Shown: positions 14,205-32,000, counted from the stretch's first letter. The stretch is DNA of 32,000 nt from an archaeon (GCA_024275415.1 JAJRZD010000043.1:122579-154578), one strand, 5' to 3'. Notes: generated by a model not told the origin, from the letters alone. Numbers and translations: made by a program.

Positions 14205-14389
14205 TCAAAGCTGGGTCATTTTCTGAGTGACATGGTAAAACTGATGGGAGAAATTGATCCATTATCTATACAGCATGTCCTGGTCATCTGGCTCAAAACA
14301 AGCTTTTGCCTTCTAAATGTCCCATACACCAATCCATTGTCAGTGGATGCCGACGTAGGAGAATCAAAGAGATCCTACTGTGTCATACC

Positions 14390-14980
14390 ATGAAGGTTTC
14401 ACTATTCGGAATGCATGCAGTGGGAAAGACGACAATCGCGAAGATGGTTCTTAGGGAAACACTACCATTGGTGCATATTCCCACTATCGGTGTGGAAATA
14501 CGGAAGGTTCCTCAAGGATTCCTAGGGCAAAGCAAGGGCATCCTAATCTGGGACATTGGAGGCCAATTGAAATTCAAGAGCCTGTGGCCTCGATACCTCA
14601 AGGGATCTCAACTCGTACTGGCTGTTACCGATAGCTCTCTTGAAACAGTCCTCTGGACAAGAAAGATGTTACCAGAACTTCGTAAATGGTCTGACAACGC
14701 TACGATTCTAGGCATTGCCAATAAGCAGGACTTGCCCAAAGCACTGACGCGAGGGCGGGTTGAATCAATCCTTGGGATACAGACGCTTGGTATCACTGCG
14801 CTGGATGTAGGAAGTAACGAACATGATATTTTTCGCAGGAAGATTATTCGAAGCCTTGGAATTGCCTATGAGCACCTATCACATGTTGATGGACTTATTA
14901 GCACGTTCCGAGAGAACACCTATCATGGACACTCACATGATAAAAGCGATAGTATTCGATATGGGAGGCACACTCTATGA
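14390..14980 (+). CDS. Arf-like small GTPase
   Basis: G1 GMHAVGKT, G2 PTIG, G3 WDIGGQ, LWPRY, G4 NKQD. ATG 14390 preferred over track start 14306. Confidence 0.85.
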   Translation: MKVSLFGMHAVGKTTIAKMVLRETLPLVHIPTIGVEIRKVPQGFLGQSKGILIWDIGGQLKFKSLWPRYLKGSQLVLAVTDSSLETVLWTRKMLPELRKWSDNATILGIANKQDLPKALTRGRVESILGIQTLGITALDVGSNEHDIFRRKIIRSLGIAYEHLSHVDGLISTFRENTYHGHSHDKSDSIRYGRHTL

Positions 14981-18311: not shown

Positions 18312-18410
18312 GGTACTTGTTCGATGGTGAATCCCACTTAAGATTTTGCAAGTGGCTTTTGTGAGGACATAGCACGAACGCTCTTATGTGACGATAGCAC
18401 CTGAGAAACG

Positions 18411-18968
18411 TTGGTGTGTATCTTGTCCACGGAGGTATACAAGGCAATCGTGATAGGCCCTAGGAATGTAGGGAAGAGTTCCCTAGTACGGAGGTATCTG
18501 GATGACATCTTCCTTGAGAAGTACACTGCAACTGTCGGTGTGGACTTGCGAGCTGCGAACATGGATTTTCCTGATGGCACAGTCACATTGACCATCGTTG
18601 ATCTGGGTGGGCAAGAGTCGTTTGACCTGCTACGCTCCCGATTCTATCAAGGGGCTCATTATGTGATGCTCGTCTATGACATCACAGAGCGTGAAACATT
18701 CGATCAGATAATCGATTGGTACGAAAATCTTTCCCTGAGTTTTTGCGAGAACGAAGGTAACATGTTGAACGGGGCCTTGGTGGCAAACAAGTGCGACCTC
18801 ATCGGCAACCATGAGGTCGAGGTTTCTGAAGGCAAGCAGCTCGCACAAGTCCTTTGCCTCGACTTTTACAAGACAAGTGCAAAAACTGGAGAGAATGTAG
18901 GCGAACTCTTCGTCAATGCTGCCATTAAGAGCAGGATGACATTCCGTCAGGCTCAGCATATGAGATAG
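18411..18968 (+). CDS. Rab-like small GTPase
   Basis: GPRNVGKS, TVGVD, DLGGQE, FYQGA, LVYDIT, NKCD, SAK; no C-terminal Cys prenylation motif. Confidence 0.92.
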   Translation: MVCILSTEVYKAIVIGPRNVGKSSLVRRYLDDIFLEKYTATVGVDLRAANMDFPDGTVTLTIVDLGGQESFDLLRSRFYQGAHYVMLVYDITERETFDQIIDWYENLSLSFCENEGNMLNGALVANKCDLIGNHEVEVSEGKQLAQVLCLDFYKTSAKTGENVGELFVNAAIKSRMTFRQAQHMR

Positions 18969-25873: not shown

Positions 25874-28852
25874 TTATTCGAAAGTTTCAGCGATGCTGAA
25901 AAGAACCGTATCCGTTCCCTCTATCCGTGACAGTTCAAGATCCACTAGGATGTCCTTGCCATAGGCAGTCCGTAGTATCCATTCTAATCGTTGAGGATTC
26001 CCATCAAGGGCCTTCGAGATACAATCTTTCATCTTGCTTTTCGAGCTTGAACCATCTGGCTGTTTTCTTGGCGCTTTGCTCCAAGCACGGAGTCTTACAA
26101 GCTCGTCTAATTCCATGCCTAAGACTGACAAAAGTGCATCATTTGCAAATTCGAACTTGTCATCCCTAATCACAGCCATGCCATTCTTGGCAGCCTTCAT
26201 CATCGCCATAAGCTTTCGTATCTTTTCGTCTTTGAGAGCGGCGACTGCCTTTTCGCCTGTAATATCAATGAGAATAGACAGGATGGCGGGCTCTCCTTGA
26301 TAGATAATCTTTTGAGGTGCATCTCGGATCCAGACAACTTTCTTGTCTTTACCTATAATTCGATATTCGAATGATGGATGATATTCTCCGACTTCACCTT
26401 CAAGAATCACCTTGACTTTTTCCTCGACCATTGCGAGATCCTCTGGATGGAAAAGCGCATTGACCTGTTTGGACGAGAATGATTCCATCTCCTTGGCACT
26501 GAACCCCATTGTCTTCTGTACCGCCTGGTTCATGTAGACGATTTGAAGAGGTGGGTATCGAGTGATCGCAATCCCGAGGTTTGACCTCTCGACAAGCATC
26601 CGGTACCTTTCCTCACTTTCACGAAGTGCTTCTTCCGCTTGCTTTCGTTCAGTTATATCCACTCCAGAGCTGATGAGACCTATGATCTCCTTGTTCTCAT
26701 CATACAACAGGTTCGCCCGCCACGCGACCAATCGCTTATTGCCCTTACGGGTAATGACAGCACGCTCACTGTAGTCAATATAGTCTGGGTCACCCTTCAT
26801 AAGATCCGAGAACAGTTGTTTCACTTCATCACGCTCATCTTCGGGAACAAACTCGAACCATGATGTCCCTACAACATCCTCATCAACAGGTATCTCGAGA
26901 ACATGACGACCAACTCGATTAAGGAGCGATATGTTACCTTCGCGGTCTAGCACGAGGAAGATATTACCTGCCATTTTGAGATACATTCGAGCAAGGTCGC
27001 GTTGGGCTCTGAGTGCCCTCTCTGCCTCCACTCGCTCGGTGATGTCGCGAAAGAGAAATTGGAATCCTGTGTGCTCGCTGTTCTTTCTAAGAGCTGTACC
27101 AGTAGCATGAAAATAGAAGACACTCCTGTCCTTCCTCTGCCCCCGTGCTTCTAACCCCTGGTATCTTTCCTCCGACCCGAGTACGTTTGCCTCGAATGTG
27201 TTGATGACCCAGAGCCGATCGTCTGGGTGAATCAGCTCGTTTATGTTCATGCCTACCATGTCAGAGGGATCATAACCGAACATCTCTCCAGCAATCGGGT
27301 TGCAGAACAATATCTTCCCCTCTTTGTCAGTCATAAATACCGCATCTGGGATATTCTCGAAAAGAGTCCTGTAGCGTATCTCACTCTGTTTCAATGCCTG
27401 TTCGGCGTTGTGTTGGTCAGTGATATCTACTTCAAGTACCTGAATGGCGGGATGCCCCTCATACTCGATGACCCGTGCATAGGAGTCAACCCATCTGACC
27501 TCACCATCCGGTCGGATGTATCTGAAGCGGAGCGCCGGAAGCTGTCCCGTTTCTATCTTTTCAAATTCGATCCGTCGCTTCAGATTATCCAAGTCGTCAG
27601 GATGGAAAACTTGCTTGAACCCATCAGAATTCATAGCAATGAGTTCTCCAATTTCTCTCCCAACAATCTTTGCATACGCCGGGTTTGCAAAGATGACTCT
27701 CCCGTCTTGTAGGATTGCGATGCCTTGCACAGAATCGTTCACTAAGCGTTGGTACTGCTCTTCACTTTGACCAAGTGCCTCAAGAGTCAGCTTTTCCCAA
27801 CTAATATCCCGGACTATACCTGCTGCACGGACAGGATTATTTTTGGAATCAAACTCCACAAAACTTCCCCGGTCTATCACCCACTTGTAGTCGCCATTCT
27901 TTGTAAGCAGACGGTATTCAGCAGAGTAGAAAGGGGTCTGTCCCGTCAGGTGTTCGTACCACTTTATCCTTATCAACTCAACATCATCAGGATGAACTAA
28001 CTTGCGCCAATCGGAAGCAAAGGCTTCCATCTCATCTAACGTGTATCCAAGGAGTTTTGCATATCTTTCGGTGAACACCATTCTTGCATCCTTCTGATAC
28101 CACTCCCAAGGCGCAAGATCAGCACCTTTCAGTGCCAAATCCAATATCTCTTGGCTTCTCTTGAGAGCTTCCTGAGCCTTTCTAGTCCCAGTAATATCCC
28201 TCACGACCGCGATGATACTCTCACCGTCATCATGCAAGCTCATGGTGATTGAGAACCAGTGTCGCATGCCATCAATGTCTAGCTCGTATTCGAATGCATC
28301 TGGAACACCACTTTCCTTGACTTTCTGTGCAAGATCAACAGCACGCGCGTTCACTTCAGCAGGGAGCACCTTGTCCTCTGACAACCCGAGTGGGATCTCA
28401 ATGGCAGTAGGAACAAAGAACCTCGCTGCCGTGCGAAAGTACATTCCCCGCACGCGTTTGCTAGAATCCTTCTCTGTTGGTGGGGGATATTGCTCGACAA
28501 GTCCCTGATCCCTAAGCTTGTGAAGGTGGTAATAGCAATTATAACTGGTGAGCCCCAATTCCGGATTCGAATTGCCAACAGCGTCGACAATCTCTTGTAC
28601 GCTCATCCAGTAACGAATAACAGGTTTTCTGACAGTCACTTCTTCTATTACCTCAGTGCCATCTTCGAGGTTTCTCTTTGTCCTACGCACCTCGGTTTCA
28701 AAATCCTCCACCCCCTTGTCCAGTGCACGGATAACTTCTCTACGAATAGGATCATACAGGGACTGTCGTTGCTCATCTGAATCAAGCATCATGAAATCTC
28801 TACGCAGAGTGTCAGGAAAGTTAGGATGCCCCTTTGTTTCGCTCATGGACAT
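25874..28852 (-). CDS. Sensor protein: N-terminal wHTH (ArsR/HTH_20-like with insertion) plus about 6 complete and 1 partial PAS domains; no kinase
   Basis: LYDPIRREVIRAL...MSVQEIV...YYHLHKLRDQGLVE; repeated HPDD and R/VDIT PAS/PAC motifs to the C-terminus; no H-box or HATPase motifs. Confidence 0.9.
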   Translation of the reverse strand: MSMSETKGHPNFPDTLRRDFMMLDSDEQRQSLYDPIRREVIRALDKGVEDFETEVRRTKRNLEDGTEVIEEVTVRKPVIRYWMSVQEIVDAVGNSNPELGLTSYNCYYHLHKLRDQGLVEQYPPPTEKDSSKRVRGMYFRTAARFFVPTAIEIPLGLSEDKVLPAEVNARAVDLAQKVKESGVPDAFEYELDIDGMRHWFSITMSLHDDGESIIAVVRDITGTRKAQEALKRSQEILDLALKGADLAPWEWYQKDARMVFTERYAKLLGYTLDEMEAFASDWRKLVHPDDVELIRIKWYEHLTGQTPFYSAEYRLLTKNGDYKWVIDRGSFVEFDSKNNPVRAAGIVRDISWEKLTLEALGQSEEQYQRLVNDSVQGIAILQDGRVIFANPAYAKIVGREIGELIAMNSDGFKQVFHPDDLDNLKRRIEFEKIETGQLPALRFRYIRPDGEVRWVDSYARVIEYEGHPAIQVLEVDITDQHNAEQALKQSEIRYRTLFENIPDAVFMTDKEGKILFCNPIAGEMFGYDPSDMVGMNINELIHPDDRLWVINTFEANVLGSEERYQGLEARGQRKDRSVFYFHATGTALRKNSEHTGFQFLFRDITERVEAERALRAQRDLARMYLKMAGNIFLVLDREGNISLLNRVGRHVLEIPVDEDVVGTSWFEFVPEDERDEVKQLFSDLMKGDPDYIDYSERAVITRKGNKRLVAWRANLLYDENKEIIGLISSGVDITERKQAEEALRESEERYRMLVERSNLGIAITRYPPLQIVYMNQAVQKTMGFSAKEMESFSSKQVNALFHPEDLAMVEEKVKVILEGEVGEYHPSFEYRIIGKDKKVVWIRDAPQKIIYQGEPAILSILIDITGEKAVAALKDEKIRKLMAMMKAAKNGMAVIRDDKFEFANDALLSVLGMELDELVRLRAWSKAPRKQPDGSSSKSKMKDCISKALDGNPQRLEWILRTAYGKDILVDLELSRIEGTDTVLFSIAETFE

Positions 28853-29060
28853 GAACTCCTTGTTCTAACACGATTCCTATAGTACTTCTGAACCATGCCT
28901 ATATATTTGTATCGTTTCCAATAAGGATTTCGGATAATTTATGACATTTAAAATGATAATAATTGTTATTAAAAAATAACCAAATAAGATAGGGTACTAC
29001 TGAATAATATTTAAATACAATAGCAGGTTAGTTAACACACGTCTAAAAAGCACAGGTTTA
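28853..29060. promoter_or_regulatory. AT-rich divergent promoter region with clustered palindromes
   Basis: CATTT-A-AAATG (28945-28955), AATAA-TTG-TTATT (28958-28970), GTTATT-AAAA-AATAAC (28965-28980), TATTTAAATA (29008-29017). Confidence 0.6.
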
Positions 29061-29906
29061 GTGCTTGGACCAAGACGGGGTGCAATTGACATTATGATCG
29101 ATGTAGAAGAATCAACTAGTCTAACTCCTGAAGAAGCAGGCCGCAGACTGATTCTGAAACTAGAGGATAGTGAACAAGAGAGCACCCTTTATCATCCGAT
29201 TAGAAGGAAGATAATTGAAGTCCTATCGTCAGGCATTCTTGACTTTCAGGTTTCAACTGACCTGCGAGAAGACATCCTTGATGATGGAACGGCAATATCC
29301 CATATGGTGAGTACACGAACCCCCTTCCAGAGATACTGGATGACAGTGGCAGAGATACTGGATGCGATTGAAAGATCACATCCAAAGATCAAAGTCACAA
29401 AACATCGATGCTATTATCATTTGGACAAGCTTATGGCTTTAGGTTTGGTAGAGCAGTATCCGCCAGTATCATCAAACAAGGATGGGAATAGACAGAGGGT
29501 TCGCGGAAGGAGTTTCCGTACGACAGCACGGTTCTTTATTTCCGGACTGAGAGGAATGTCATCTCAGCTATCCGAAAGAATTCTAAATATCCTTGACAAC
29601 TGCTGGGGATTTGATACCACCAGATTGGAACGCAGTCGTCTAAGAGAGTTGTTACATTCTCTGGATGAAACGATAGTTTCAATGATGGGGTGTATTGCTT
29701 CTAATATGAAAGGGTCTTCGACAGAGTATATGTTGATACCGCTTGTTCTAGAGCAGCTTGCATTACTCCTCTTATCAGATGACGAGAGATTCATTGCACT
29801 GCAAAGAGAAGCAAAAAGGATTCTTGCATCGAACGGGCAACTACTTGGTACAAACACAATCGAAACAGTGCTTCATGACAACGACGAATCGTTAGGAGGC
29901 TCGTAA
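29061..29906 (+). CDS. wHTH protein paralogous to the N-terminus of the PAS sensor, with helical C-terminal region (start may be ATG 29094)
   Basis: LYHPIRRKIIEVL...RYWMTVAEIL...CYYHLDKLMALGLVEQYPP...RVRGRSFRTTARFF. Confidence 0.85.
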   Translation: MLGPRRGAIDIMIDVEESTSLTPEEAGRRLILKLEDSEQESTLYHPIRRKIIEVLSSGILDFQVSTDLREDILDDGTAISHMVSTRTPFQRYWMTVAEILDAIERSHPKIKVTKHRCYYHLDKLMALGLVEQYPPVSSNKDGNRQRVRGRSFRTTARFFISGLRGMSSQLSERILNILDNCWGFDTTRLERSRLRELLHSLDETIVSMMGCIASNMKGSSTEYMLIPLVLEQLALLLLSDDERFIALQREAKRILASNGQLLGTNTIETVLHDNDESLGGS

Positions 29907-29907
29907 A

Positions 29908-30468
29908 ATTAAATCTGTAAGCTCAAAGGTCCCAGTATACAAAATAACCCTTCTTGGGGAAGGAGGCGTTGGAAAGACTTCCATCGCTCTTAGGTATACA
30001 GAGGACAGGTTCGATGAGAACATGAGAATAACAATAGGTGTCAATTTCGCAACAAAGAAGCTTGAGGCGAATGGTATGCCTTTGACAATGATGATCTGGG
30101 ACCTTGGTGGCCAACCACGGTTTCGAGATGTTGTCGGCGACTATTTCGTAGGCACAAAGCTTGCGATTGTGACATATGATGCGACCAGGCCATTTTCTTT
30201 GGAACGGTTGCATGATTGGATAGACCGACTGAAACAAAATGCACCCGATGCGGAATTGCTGTTCGTTGGGAACAAGATAGACGAACGGGATGAAGGAACC
30301 GGTGTTTCTCTATCTCAGGGTCAGGAATTTGCGAAACAGTATCACGCAGAGTGTGTTGAGGTTTCAGCAAAGACTGGTGAAGGGATAGAGGAGATGTTCG
30401 AGCTTGCAGCAAGGATTCTGCTCAATAAACTTGAGGGGAATCCTAACCCTGTTGCAACCATAGCGTAG
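29908..30468 (+). CDS. Rab-like small GTPase; N-terminus extends upstream of track ORF 30022, proposed ATT start
   Basis: The frame upstream of 30022 encodes YKITLLGEGGVGKTS (G1); then TIGVNF, WDLGGQ, NKID, SAK. Identity is firm, the start position is tentative. Confidence 0.85.
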   Translation: MKSVSSKVPVYKITLLGEGGVGKTSIALRYTEDRFDENMRITIGVNFATKKLEANGMPLTMMIWDLGGQPRFRDVVGDYFVGTKLAIVTYDATRPFSLERLHDWIDRLKQNAPDAELLFVGNKIDERDEGTGVSLSQGQEFAKQYHAECVEVSAKTGEGIEEMFELAARILLNKLEGNPNPVATIA

Positions 30469-30480
30469 GGGACAAATCAT

Positions 30481-30735
30481 ATGGTAAGAAAAAAATTGAA
30501 GCCCTTCGCGTGCCCCGTCTGTGGAGATGGGAGTCTCGTAGAAGTTGAAATTGAAGAAGAGGTCATCACAGAGGCAAAACGAATTCCAGCGATGATGACC
30601 ACGAGGTGTGCCAAAAAACACACCCTTGTTCTTTTCGTAGATGCCAATTTTCAGATCCGCGATGTCGAAGTCGCAGTACAGGCTCGCGAAAAGGACGTGA
30701 TTGATAAAACAAAGGATTGGTTTGACACACTTTGA
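30481..30735 (+). CDS. Small zinc-ribbon-like protein
   Basis: CPVC...CAKKH putative metal ligands; 12 nt after the GTPase stop. Confidence 0.75.
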   Translation: MVRKKLKPFACPVCGDGSLVEVEIEEEVITEAKRIPAMMTTRCAKKHTLVLFVDANFQIRDVEVAVQAREKDVIDKTKDWFDTL

Positions 30736-30773: not shown

Positions 30774-31220
30774 ATGTACGGAATTATGCTTGTAAATCAT
30801 GCTGGCGAAACTGTCGCCTCTGTGGGATGGAATCATCTTGAAGGAGACGTTTCATTGTTTGGTGGATTTGTATCTGCGATCCAGATGTTCATCAAACGAG
30901 CATCAGGTGGAACTGAGATGAACGAAATGGTATTTGGAAACCTGAAGCTCCTGATTGGAAATTCAAATGGTTATCACATAGTAACACTCCACGATGCTGA
31001 GGATACATCGGCAATTGATTCAAATCGTCAGGTTGTCGAACTGATAAAGGATAACGAGTCCGAGCCCATGAACGAAGGAGTTCTCGGTCTCATCCAAGAG
31101 ATGGTGACATTGAAAGGCGAACTCAGCAAAGAAGCGGAGCAGAGCATGAAGAACTGGACACAGTCACAGCTAGGAAAGGCTAAGAAATCTGCTAGTGACT
31201 GGGGGAAATCTGTATTCTAG
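30774..31220 (+). CDS. Longin-like domain protein
   Basis: beta-beta-alpha pattern YGIMLVNHAGETV...SLFGGFVSAIQMF, then hairpin EMVFGNLKLLIG; resembles Asgard longin/profilin-like folds. Confidence 0.65.
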   Translation: MYGIMLVNHAGETVASVGWNHLEGDVSLFGGFVSAIQMFIKRASGGTEMNEMVFGNLKLLIGNSNGYHIVTLHDAEDTSAIDSNRQVVELIKDNESEPMNEGVLGLIQEMVTLKGELSKEAEQSMKNWTQSQLGKAKKSASDWGKSVF

Positions 31221-31232
31221 GTGGTGTTATCT

Positions 31233-32000
31233 ATGGCATTGTACGATACGACGCAGTTATACGTGGGACTGATAACAATAGTGGCTGCTCTGACAGTCAT
31301 CTGGTATAGCAAAAATAGGTCGGCAGGTCTTGATGCAGAGTCTAGAAAGGCTTTCAGACCGCTATACCTCATTGCGATAGGCACCCTAGTCTATGGAATT
31401 GGAGCCATTGGAACATCCGTTGAGCATTGGACTGGAATATATCTGCTTCTTGGTGCATATTATTTCTACTACATCTTATTGACCTTTGAGGTCATAATTG
31501 TAAGTTCAGCCGCAGCAATGATCCTGGACTCAAAGAAACTATATGCAGCACCTATCGTGATATTGAGCCTATCGGTGGTCTTTTTCAACCTCACATTGCT
31601 CTTTCCTAGTCAAGCAGACCTTATCTTTATCATAGGAGGGATTGTGGTTCCAGTGGGACTCCTACTTTTTGTCGGGGCAATCCTCCTTTACATCGCTAAA
31701 GAAACTAAACGGAGCACCAGTGCCGCTCTGGCATTTATGCTAGCTCTTCAGATGTTCGATTTGCCATTCTTGTACACAGAATTTGTGAGTGGACCATTAG
31801 TGATTGCATTGCTGTTCATAGTATTGATGGGACCCGCAATGGTTGCGTTTGCTTTTCTGAAACCAGACCAAAAAATCACCTTAGAACTAATAGGATATGG
31901 GTCTAGCTTCGCCGGTCCTGCTTTGATACTTGTCAGCCTTCAAGAGGCTGCACTGTTTACGACCATTGATGTGGCGATAATTGCGATGTCTAGCGCCTTC
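31233..32000 (+). CDS. Polytopic membrane protein, C-terminus runs off the window
   Basis: Open from ATG 31233 (MALYDTTQLYVGLITIVAALTVIWY...) with repeated hydrophobic segments; absent from the ORF track. Confidence 0.8.
   Translation, partial: MALYDTTQLYVGLITIVAALTVIWYSKNRSAGLDAESRKAFRPLYLIAIGTLVYGIGAIGTSVEHWTGIYLLLGAYYFYYILLTFEVIIVSSAAAMILDSKKLYAAPIVILSLSVVFFNLTLLFPSQADLIFIIGGIVVPVGLLLFVGAILLYIAKETKRSTSAALAFMLALQMFDLPFLYTEFVSGPLVIALLFIVLMGPAMVAFAFLKPDQKITLELIGYGSSFAGPALILVSLQEAALFTTIDVAIIAMSSAF

Follow-up and report, generated by a model that had tools for sequence, protein, structure and literature searches.

A divergent pair of ArsR-like winged-helix proteins, one fused to a PAS array, next to a small-GTPase operon in Candidatus Thorarchaeota

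Genes of the locus

The window analysed here, a stretch of 32,000 nucleotides from an archaeal genome of the Candidatus Thorarchaeota (Asgard) (GCA_024275415.1, JAJRZD010000043.1:122579-154578), carries two head-to-head genes whose products share a domain, the winged helix-turn-helix (wHTH), of ArsR-like type. The longer of the two proteins continues into an array of PAS domains, the shorter one ends in a helical tail, and downstream of the short gene, on its own strand, come the genes of a small GTPase and of three further proteins. The two genes and the region between them are as follows.

25874-28852, minus strand: long gene, 992 residues; ArsR-like wHTH with a beta-hairpin insert, linker helix, partial PAS domain and six complete PAS domains (open reading frame (ORF), Pfam, NCBIfam and a hidden Markov model (HMM) of the PAS repeat)
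28853-29093, no strand: divergent intergenic region of 241 nucleotides, AT-rich, holding both promoters (sequence and alignment with three related loci)
29094-29906, plus strand: short gene, 270 residues from ATG 29094 (281 from an alternative GTG at 29061); wHTH with the same hairpin insert and a four-helix tail (ORF, database call P0003, AlphaFold2)

Bases 29061-29093 are conserved at the nucleotide level in relatives with a differing reading frame, and the short gene therefore most likely starts at ATG 29094 and not at GTG 29061, which would place the intergenic region at 28853-29093; the database call for the short protein (P0003) has 270 residues. A preliminary description of the locus, made from the sequence alone, had recognised the divergent region and ended it at 29060; the region itself stands, while its end is probably to be moved to 29093.

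The winged-helix domain and its hairpin insert

The N-terminal regions of the long and the short proteins are 46% identical over 145 residues (BLASTP, E 3e-41). Both contain the motifs LYDPIRREVIRAL/LYHPIRRKIIEVL, LEDGT/LDDGT and RYWMSVQEI/RYWMTVAEI, followed by CYYHL.KL...GLVEQYPP and RVRG..FRT.ARFF.

28403-28795, minus strand: wHTH of the long protein, residues 20-150 (identity with the short protein, profile A2, alignment with PH1932)
28613-28711, minus strand: hairpin insert of the long protein, residues ~48-80 (strands E29-42 and E48-61 of a model numbered from residue 20)

The nearest solved relative by sequence is PH1932 of Pyrococcus horikoshii (PDB 1ULY / 2CWE), an ArsR-type winged-helix regulator, which is matched at E 1.2e-5 by a profile built from 46 domain sequences. 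In a Foldseek comparison of the short protein it again comes first (E 8e-4), ahead of winged helices of the PadR and Fur types. In the profile alignment, positions 2-27 stand opposite residues 6-31 of PH1932 and positions 79-130 opposite residues 42-87, so that 51 profile positions stand opposite about 10 residues of PH1932; this gap confirms an insertion of roughly 30-40 residues, which in the AlphaFold2 models of both proteins forms a long two-stranded beta hairpin between the first helix and the helix-turn-helix. The models, with a predicted local distance difference test (pLDDT) value of 83 for residues 20-359 of the long protein and of 70 for the short protein, contain the helices, the recognition helix and the wing strands of a winged-helix fold in both cases. 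In Pfam the short protein gives sub-threshold matches to HTH_20 and HTH_5 only; the HTH_20 scores are 25.8 bits for the long and 18.3 bits for the short protein, and orthologues and paralogues carrying the same domain score above the threshold (28.8, 29.6, 29.3 and 35.9 bits). By their modelled fold and the match to PH1932, both proteins carry an ArsR-like wHTH.

The most conserved parts of the short protein are the putative recognition helix and the wing, with invariant C-Y-Y-H, R137, R142 and A145 (alignment A3). The flanks of the recognition helix differ consistently between the two kinds of protein across the alignment: the long forms have N before CYYHL and H or R after it, and the short forms have Q or R before it and D, Q or E after it, a difference which fits related but non-identical predicted sites. 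Four helices follow the wing in the model of the short protein; this tail is homologous to the tail of the TRASH-type paralogues described below and probably mediates dimerisation.

The PAS array of the long protein

Pfam and NCBIfam searches of the long protein returned PAS families and the one sub-threshold HTH_20 match, and no HisKA, HATPase_c, GGDEF, EAL, receiver (REC) or cyclase domain. After the wing, the chain runs through a linker helix, three strands and a long helix into the first complete PAS domain.

28187-28300, minus strand: partial PAS domain, residues ~185-222; three strands, then a long helix into PAS1 (PAS_4, alignments, AlphaFold2 model)
25877-28183, minus strand: array of six complete PAS domains, residues 224-992 (repeat HMM, identity matrix, translation)

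A repeat HMM built from the long protein itself places the six complete domains at residues 224-353, 356-479, 481-606, 608-735, 737-867 and 867-992. Their pairwise identities range from 14 to 35%, and from this low identity the repeats are considered to be old. The HP(D/E)D motif is found in PAS1, PAS2, PAS3 and PAS5, three times as HPDD and once as HPED. Residues ~185-222 match only the last half of PAS_4 (positions 50-109 of 110, E 0.033); the near-invariant motif WFSxTMSLHDDGESI lies in the three strands of this partial domain (invariant columns of alignments A5 and A6), which are E166-174, E177-187 and E194-200 in the model numbered from residue 20. The three-strand partial domain with TMSLHDDGES (within 27776-28300 of the window, residues ~185-360) has the highest conservation in the long protein outside the wHTH.

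The structural claims of the preliminary description are upheld by these results. The ORFs of two head-to-head genes and every wHTH motif that it quoted are present; the insert is seen both in the alignment with PH1932 and as a hairpin in the two models; the ArsR-like nature of both domains agrees with the HTH_20 matches and with PH1932 by sequence and fold. The roughly six complete and one partial PAS domains without kinase, cyclase or receiver correspond to six domains in the repeat HMM, one half match to PAS_4 and no kinase in Pfam, and the short helical tail corresponds to the four modelled helices.

Distribution and phylogeny of the family

The survey sample comprised species-representative genomes and a few metagenome contigs, many of the genomes being incomplete. 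The domain was found in 23 of the 24 other genomes of the family to which the window belongs; 16 genomes that represent other families in the same phylum gave no match. When 1.84 billion representative proteins were searched exhaustively with the profile, 58 clusters reached E<1e-10 and 24 reached E<1e-30, and with so few clusters the family is small and lineage-restricted. The pair is restricted to Candidatus Thorarchaeota.

Four branches are distinguished within the family. A distant branch of 245-290 residues occurs in nearly all genomes of the family to which the window belongs; a TRASH/YHS-like branch of ~300-316 residues has the same wHTH and the same helical tail followed by a C-terminal cysteine motif; the PAS-fused forms and the short partners make up the other two. 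The short partners form one clade in the domain tree (support 99/96), nested in a clade (100/99) that also holds every PAS-fused form, and the subtrees of the long and the short proteins agree in branching order, a pattern which fits one old duplication followed by joint inheritance.

The 11 syntenic orthologues of the long protein have 617-992 residues and three to six PAS domains, and each of them ends after a PAS domain; domain searches found a kinase in none of the 11. In all of these, as in the long protein of the window, input and wHTH output lie on one polypeptide without phosphotransfer domains. Kinase-bearing orthologues, which the preliminary description had named as the finding that would make the protein of the window a truncation, are thus absent from this set; since none of the syntenic orthologues has a kinase, the kinase-less form is native, and the reading of the long protein as a truncated kinase is ruled out. 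The wHTH-PAS family as a whole can carry a kinase, as two non-syntenic paralogues of the PAS branch, P0030 (1004 residues) and P0027 (835 residues), end in HATPase_c.

Synteny and the GTPase operon

The pair was identified in 8 of 86 Thorarchaeota species genomes, belonging to four genera, and the long gene adjoins every orthologue of the short partner. The layout comprises six genes: the long wHTH-PAS gene on the minus strand, facing, on the plus strand, the short wHTH gene, the GTPase gene, and genes for proteins of 84-90 residues, of 147-163 residues and, for a membrane protein, of ~460 residues. It is kept in all ten loci with enough contig to judge (the window, G014, G070, G095, G048, G077, G083 and three metagenome contigs), and the gene tables of further contigs agree; the paired divergent occurrence that the preliminary description had put forward for checking therefore holds at every informative locus. 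The outer flanks vary, with FdhD at the locus of the window and an aminotransferase or other genes elsewhere. The genes downstream of the short gene in the window are listed below.

29908-30468, plus strand: small GTPase, Ras/Rab/Arf-like, operon gene 2 (stop-to-stop frame; Ras match at profile positions 1-159 of 162)
30481-30735, plus strand: 84-residue protein, operon gene 3 (N-terminal CPVCG; sub-threshold Zn_ribbon_Elf1 match; kept in 10 of 10 loci)
30774-31220, plus strand: 148-residue Asgard-specific protein, operon gene 4 (no Pfam match)
31221-32000, plus strand: multi-pass membrane protein, operon gene 5 (ORF cut at the window end; no Pfam match; ~460 residues in relatives; kept in 10 of 10 loci)

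Ahead of the P-loop (29893-30024 of the window), the frame of the GTPase lacks any ATG, GTG or TTG. An in-frame ATT at 29908 follows a GGAGG (29895-29899) and is aligned with the ATG of the orthologue at L045, and the frame read from it gives a full-length Ras-family match; the GTPase probably starts at this ATT. One nucleotide then separates the stop of the short gene from the start of the GTPase, and a terminator scan of the plus strand gave no terminator-like site between the two genes. The 84-residue protein may be Zn-ribbon-like, to judge from its CPVCG motif and the sub-threshold match. The 148-residue protein, whose family has one to three matches per genome in 60 of the 86 Thorarchaeota genomes, has Roadblock/LAMTOR2 as its nearest named Atlas cluster (score 0.91), and a roadblock/longin-like fold is noted here as a lead.

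The GTPase cassette also occurs without any wHTH gene, in G075 (L230, C1), in G051 (L232, C2) and as a second copy in G048 (L231, C13). These cassettes consist of the GTPase, a ~90-residue protein, a ~150-residue protein and a ~480-residue membrane protein, and G048 holds both versions. The pair has thus been added to one version of a cassette that is itself more widely distributed, and this argues for a regulatory role of the pair and against the short protein as a core subunit of the cassette.

The intergenic region and its conserved elements

Two conserved elements precede the short gene within the 241 nucleotides of the intergenic region.

29010-29017, plus strand: TATA-like box TTTAAATA of the short gene and the operon, kept in all relatives examined (alignments A4 and A7)
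29038-29082, plus strand: conserved block of 45 nucleotides, beginning near the expected transcription start; putative operator or leader element

The octamer TTTAAATA is a putative TATA box by its sequence and conservation. The block contains an inverted repeat AAGCAC-N7-GTGCTT (29048-29066) and a Shine-Dalgarno (SD)-like GGGGTG (29077-29082). It is almost invariant in the clade of the window (the window, L045, L042 and L202), in loci where the flanking proteins are 44-59% identical, and the reading frame is not kept. The inverted repeat has, besides the promoter copy, one second copy in its own genome (contig C1); this second copy was rejected as a regulon member, as its position is within a coding frame and chance alone would give about one match. 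A pattern scan for the element of this clade across the metagenomes gave 94 matches, none with the flanking motif and all judged to be chance, and BLAST searches with the promoter region against 81 genomes of the family returned noise only.

In the other clade a 10-2-10 palindrome, TATTGCAAY-NN-GTTRCAATA, lies 8-12 nucleotides past the TATA-like box. Archaeal repressor sites usually overlap the transcription start as a palindrome. In all five of five genomes the palindrome core is found once, at the short-gene promoter, G011 alone having an extra site, and a core that is essentially single-copy gives no sign of a dispersed regulon.

As regards structured RNA, an Rfam scan of 28700-29300 gave chance-level matches only, and folding of the leader at 29036-29100 yielded a hairpin with a z-score of -1.25, that is, no thermodynamic support for a structured RNA. 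The short-gene leader of the second clade has a small hairpin of its own, ACRCTTG-loop-CAAGYGT, between the palindrome and an SD-like GGAGTGAT (L046:2640-2685, L032:8921-8966, L193:7204-7248 and L194:5959-6005); among five sequences, its stem has one compensatory and several G-U changes, too few to decide. The short gene of this clade probably starts at a conserved GTG or ATG a few nucleotides past the SD-like sequence and not at the called upstream TTG.

A probable regulatory role and its alternatives

The arrangement described above is best read, in our moderately confident judgement, as a pair of vertically co-inherited ArsR-type regulators acting on the 241-nucleotide region, such that production of the GTPase cassette follows the signals received by the PAS array. 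The anatomy, homology and synteny of the pair, its lack of a kinase and the conserved cis elements are observed; that the proteins bind DNA, which genes they target and the sign of the regulation are predicted. The long protein would act as a cytoplasmic one-component sensor-regulator, its N-terminal wHTH binding DNA without any phosphotransfer, and the PAS array (three to six domains in the orthologues, six here) would serve for signal input and oligomerisation. Both proteins would bind the conserved predicted sites in the divergent promoter region; the short protein may autoregulate the operon from a site at or just past the transcription start, and the long protein may couple the expression of the operon, as well as its own, to the signal sensed by PAS. 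The GTPase operon would be the likely regulated target, a connection that the preliminary description did not draw. For an ArsR-type dimer on an inverted-repeat operator the locus gives indirect signs, namely the palindromic or conserved promoter elements and a slight leaning of a complex prediction, described below, towards pairing of the paralogues.

Several observations weigh against this interpretation. Both wHTH domains of the window fall just below the Pfam HTH_20 threshold of 27 bits, and the pair is patchy, being present in 8 of the 86 species genomes. The clear palindrome of the other clade is degenerate in the clade of the window, where the conserved block could instead be a 5'-leader RNA element. 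The HATPase_c domains of P0030 and P0027 mean that the same wHTH also occurs where the output of the protein may be something other than binding to DNA.

The preliminary description had proposed a phosphorylation-free two-gene switch, in which the long and the short proteins heterodimerise or compete for the same operators and their ratio sets the output. The kinase-less form and the strict pairing on which this proposal drew have stood, and the DNA-binding domains are indeed paralogous, with a shared CYYHL core in the recognition helix and strict co-inheritance. Its heterodimer part fares less well. A complex prediction of residues 20-215 of the long protein with the short protein scored 0.35 against 0.03 for the best control and so leans slightly towards it; this was one long:short prediction with alignments for both partners, the runs agreeing in at least 98% of contacts and the partner having a pLDDT value of at least 74. 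In the calibration, 58 of 80 solved complexes passed the mark, as did 2 of 110 mismatched pairs, 7 of those 80 solved complexes and both passing mismatches lying at 0.60 or below, and by the rating of the method itself a pass at such a score is wrong in more cases than it is right, except where the pairing was already a likely one. The pass may moreover reflect likeness only, because the chains are paralogues of a dimeric fold, and such paralogues can pass on likeness alone. The flanks of the recognition helix differ consistently between the long and the short forms, and the regions after the wHTH, where the dimer contacts are expected, are non-homologous (a PAS array against a helical tail). 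A switch of this kind is regarded as a possible refinement of the main reading, unlikely although not negligible. Still less probable is that the short wHTH, instead of being a transcription factor, serves the GTPase machine as an adaptor or regulator that binds proteins and is translated together with the machine, DNA being bound by the long protein only. Winged-helix domains serve also as protein-protein modules, the HTH_20 score of the short protein is weak (18.3 bits), and in the GTPase operon its gene always comes first, here at one nucleotide from the GTPase; against this, other Thorarchaeota have the cassette with no wHTH gene, and one genome has such a cassette as a second copy, conservation in the short protein is highest in the putative recognition helix and wing, and its own promoter carries a conserved palindrome or block, as is usual for an autoregulated repressor.

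A similarly small chance is given to the adjacency being a mere tandem inverted duplication, the long protein regulating unrelated distant genes and the short protein its own operon only, with no interplay. The unpaired wHTH-PAS paralogues at other loci (L198, L199, P0030 and P0027) and the extra palindrome site in G011 would agree with it, but the pairing is kept in ten of ten loci and four genera against changing genes on both outer sides, the subtrees of the long and the short forms branch alike and the operator-like core is essentially single-copy per genome.

The likely targeting of a GTPase operon by the regulator pair is the main reason for interest in the locus. Asgard archaea have many eukaryote-like small GTPases, and almost nothing is known of when and why they are used. 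The GTPases of MK-D1 are generally not in operons with candidate regulators such as roadblock or longin genes, and specific transcription factors have been suggested for Asgard GTPases by a structural study (PMC10933270). Here, a GTPase lies in a conserved operon with three partners, accompanied by a probable regulator pair of its own, one member of which bears sensors, and by a short promoter in which conserved sites lie; the locus pairs one GTPase with its likely partners and gives a concrete, testable handle. A bolder version, which we advance tentatively and with the chances against it, is that the sensor-regulator and its sensor-less paralogue act as a dimer or competitor pair in the manner of the basic helix-loop-helix (bHLH)-PAS factors, and that they would be the first case in which a transcriptional input to a small-GTPase module of Asgard archaea can be defined, timing a Rab-like GTPase, possibly a roadblock/longin-like partner, and a membrane protein. 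Should the regulatory interpretation fail, the pair would still represent an uncharacterised, Thorarchaeota-only winged-helix family with an unusual hairpin insert.

Comparison with known systems

PH1932 resembles the family in its N-terminal helix, recognition-helix and wing motifs (RRxIL..L, YHHL.KL..GLV and YY.RTA..F) and, like the short protein, has an extra C-terminal domain after the wHTH. It differs in having ~10 residues where the Thorarchaeota family has ~50 positions, with no long hairpin and no PAS fusion.

One-component systems with PAS input and helix-turn-helix output (Ulrich, Koonin and Zhulin 2005, as cited in PMC10468136) include PpsR/CrtJ, the LOV-HTH protein EL222 and the haloarchaeal Bat. 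They have, like the long protein, a sensor and a DNA-binding output on one polypeptide, with PAS as a cytoplasmic input or oligomerisation module. A DNA-binding domain combined with PAS domains and lacking phosphotransfer is the ordinary definition of such systems, and the term 'undescribed system' used in the preliminary description was too strong. The long protein differs in that its DNA-binding domain is N-terminal and ArsR-like, with an insert, and in that its PAS array is unusually long (six domains and a partial one); the locus differs in the sensor-less paralogue that is always divergent and in the small-GTPase operon as the likely target. It is this combination, an ArsR-type domain with a hairpin insert placed N-terminal to a long PAS array, a constant sensor-less paralogue and a GTPase-operon target, the last being a prediction, that is unusual, and a literature search found no paper describing a module of regulator pair and GTPase.

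Archaeal PAS proteins are mostly kinases, PAS transcription factors being commoner in eukaryotes (PMC10468136). The archaeal multi-PAS histidine kinases have a diverged PAS array, as does the long protein, but carry HisKA/HATPase_c, which is absent in the protein of the window and in all its syntenic orthologues. The bHLH-PAS factors of eukaryotes (AHR-ARNT, HIF-ARNT and CLOCK-BMAL1) resemble the long protein in placing their DNA-binding domain at the N-terminus, ahead of the PAS domains, and they work as paralogue dimers; the fold matches of the N-terminal model of the long protein include tandem-PAS and bHLH-PAS structures, and a published survey reports the HP(D/E)D motif for bHLH-PAS proteins and for the largely unstudied bacterial PAS cluster 8 (PMC10468136). 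They differ in that the N-terminal domain is bHLH and not, as in the long protein, a winged helix, and the partner here is without PAS domains. The likeness is one of working logic only, concerning the domain order and the PAS folds, with no sign of common descent.

The archaeal TRASH/YHS metal-responsive regulators have possible representatives in the same genus, paralogues of ~300-316 residues, which share the wHTH and the tail with the short protein. The short protein ends before their cysteine motif and has none of its cysteines, and the motif is absent in all its orthologues too. A degraded TRASH regulator was considered as an origin for the short protein and rejected: despite the homologous tail, its wHTH falls in the tree with the PAS-fused and not with the TRASH forms, which makes it a distinct lineage.

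Paralogues and further GTPase-like frames

The TRASH-like paralogues were located in the genus of the window and in a neighbouring genus (G013) at L035:3006-3941, L036:855-1787, L037:4397-5347, L038:6293-7201, L039:6335-7264, L040:5369-6286 and L041:2455-3360. Their tail has an invariant L-S-D motif and is followed by a C-terminal CCG..CxxCG..GK..FCxxxC, with sub-threshold YHS, zf-FCS and TRASH matches, and they are possible metal-sensing relatives. No TRASH-like copy was found with the query used in the 93%-complete genome from which the window comes.

The two kinase-bearing paralogues, P0030 at L200:5174-8188 and P0027 at L201:4013-6520, have the same hairpin-bearing wHTH and PAS domains, and HATPase_c, response-regulator and 427-residue genes as neighbours; a winged helix at the N-terminus of a kinase is unusual.

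Two more ORFs of the window, at 14258-14980 and 18405-18968, match the GTPase of the operon (E 2e-8 and 2e-19, respectively), making the region of the window rich in small GTPases.

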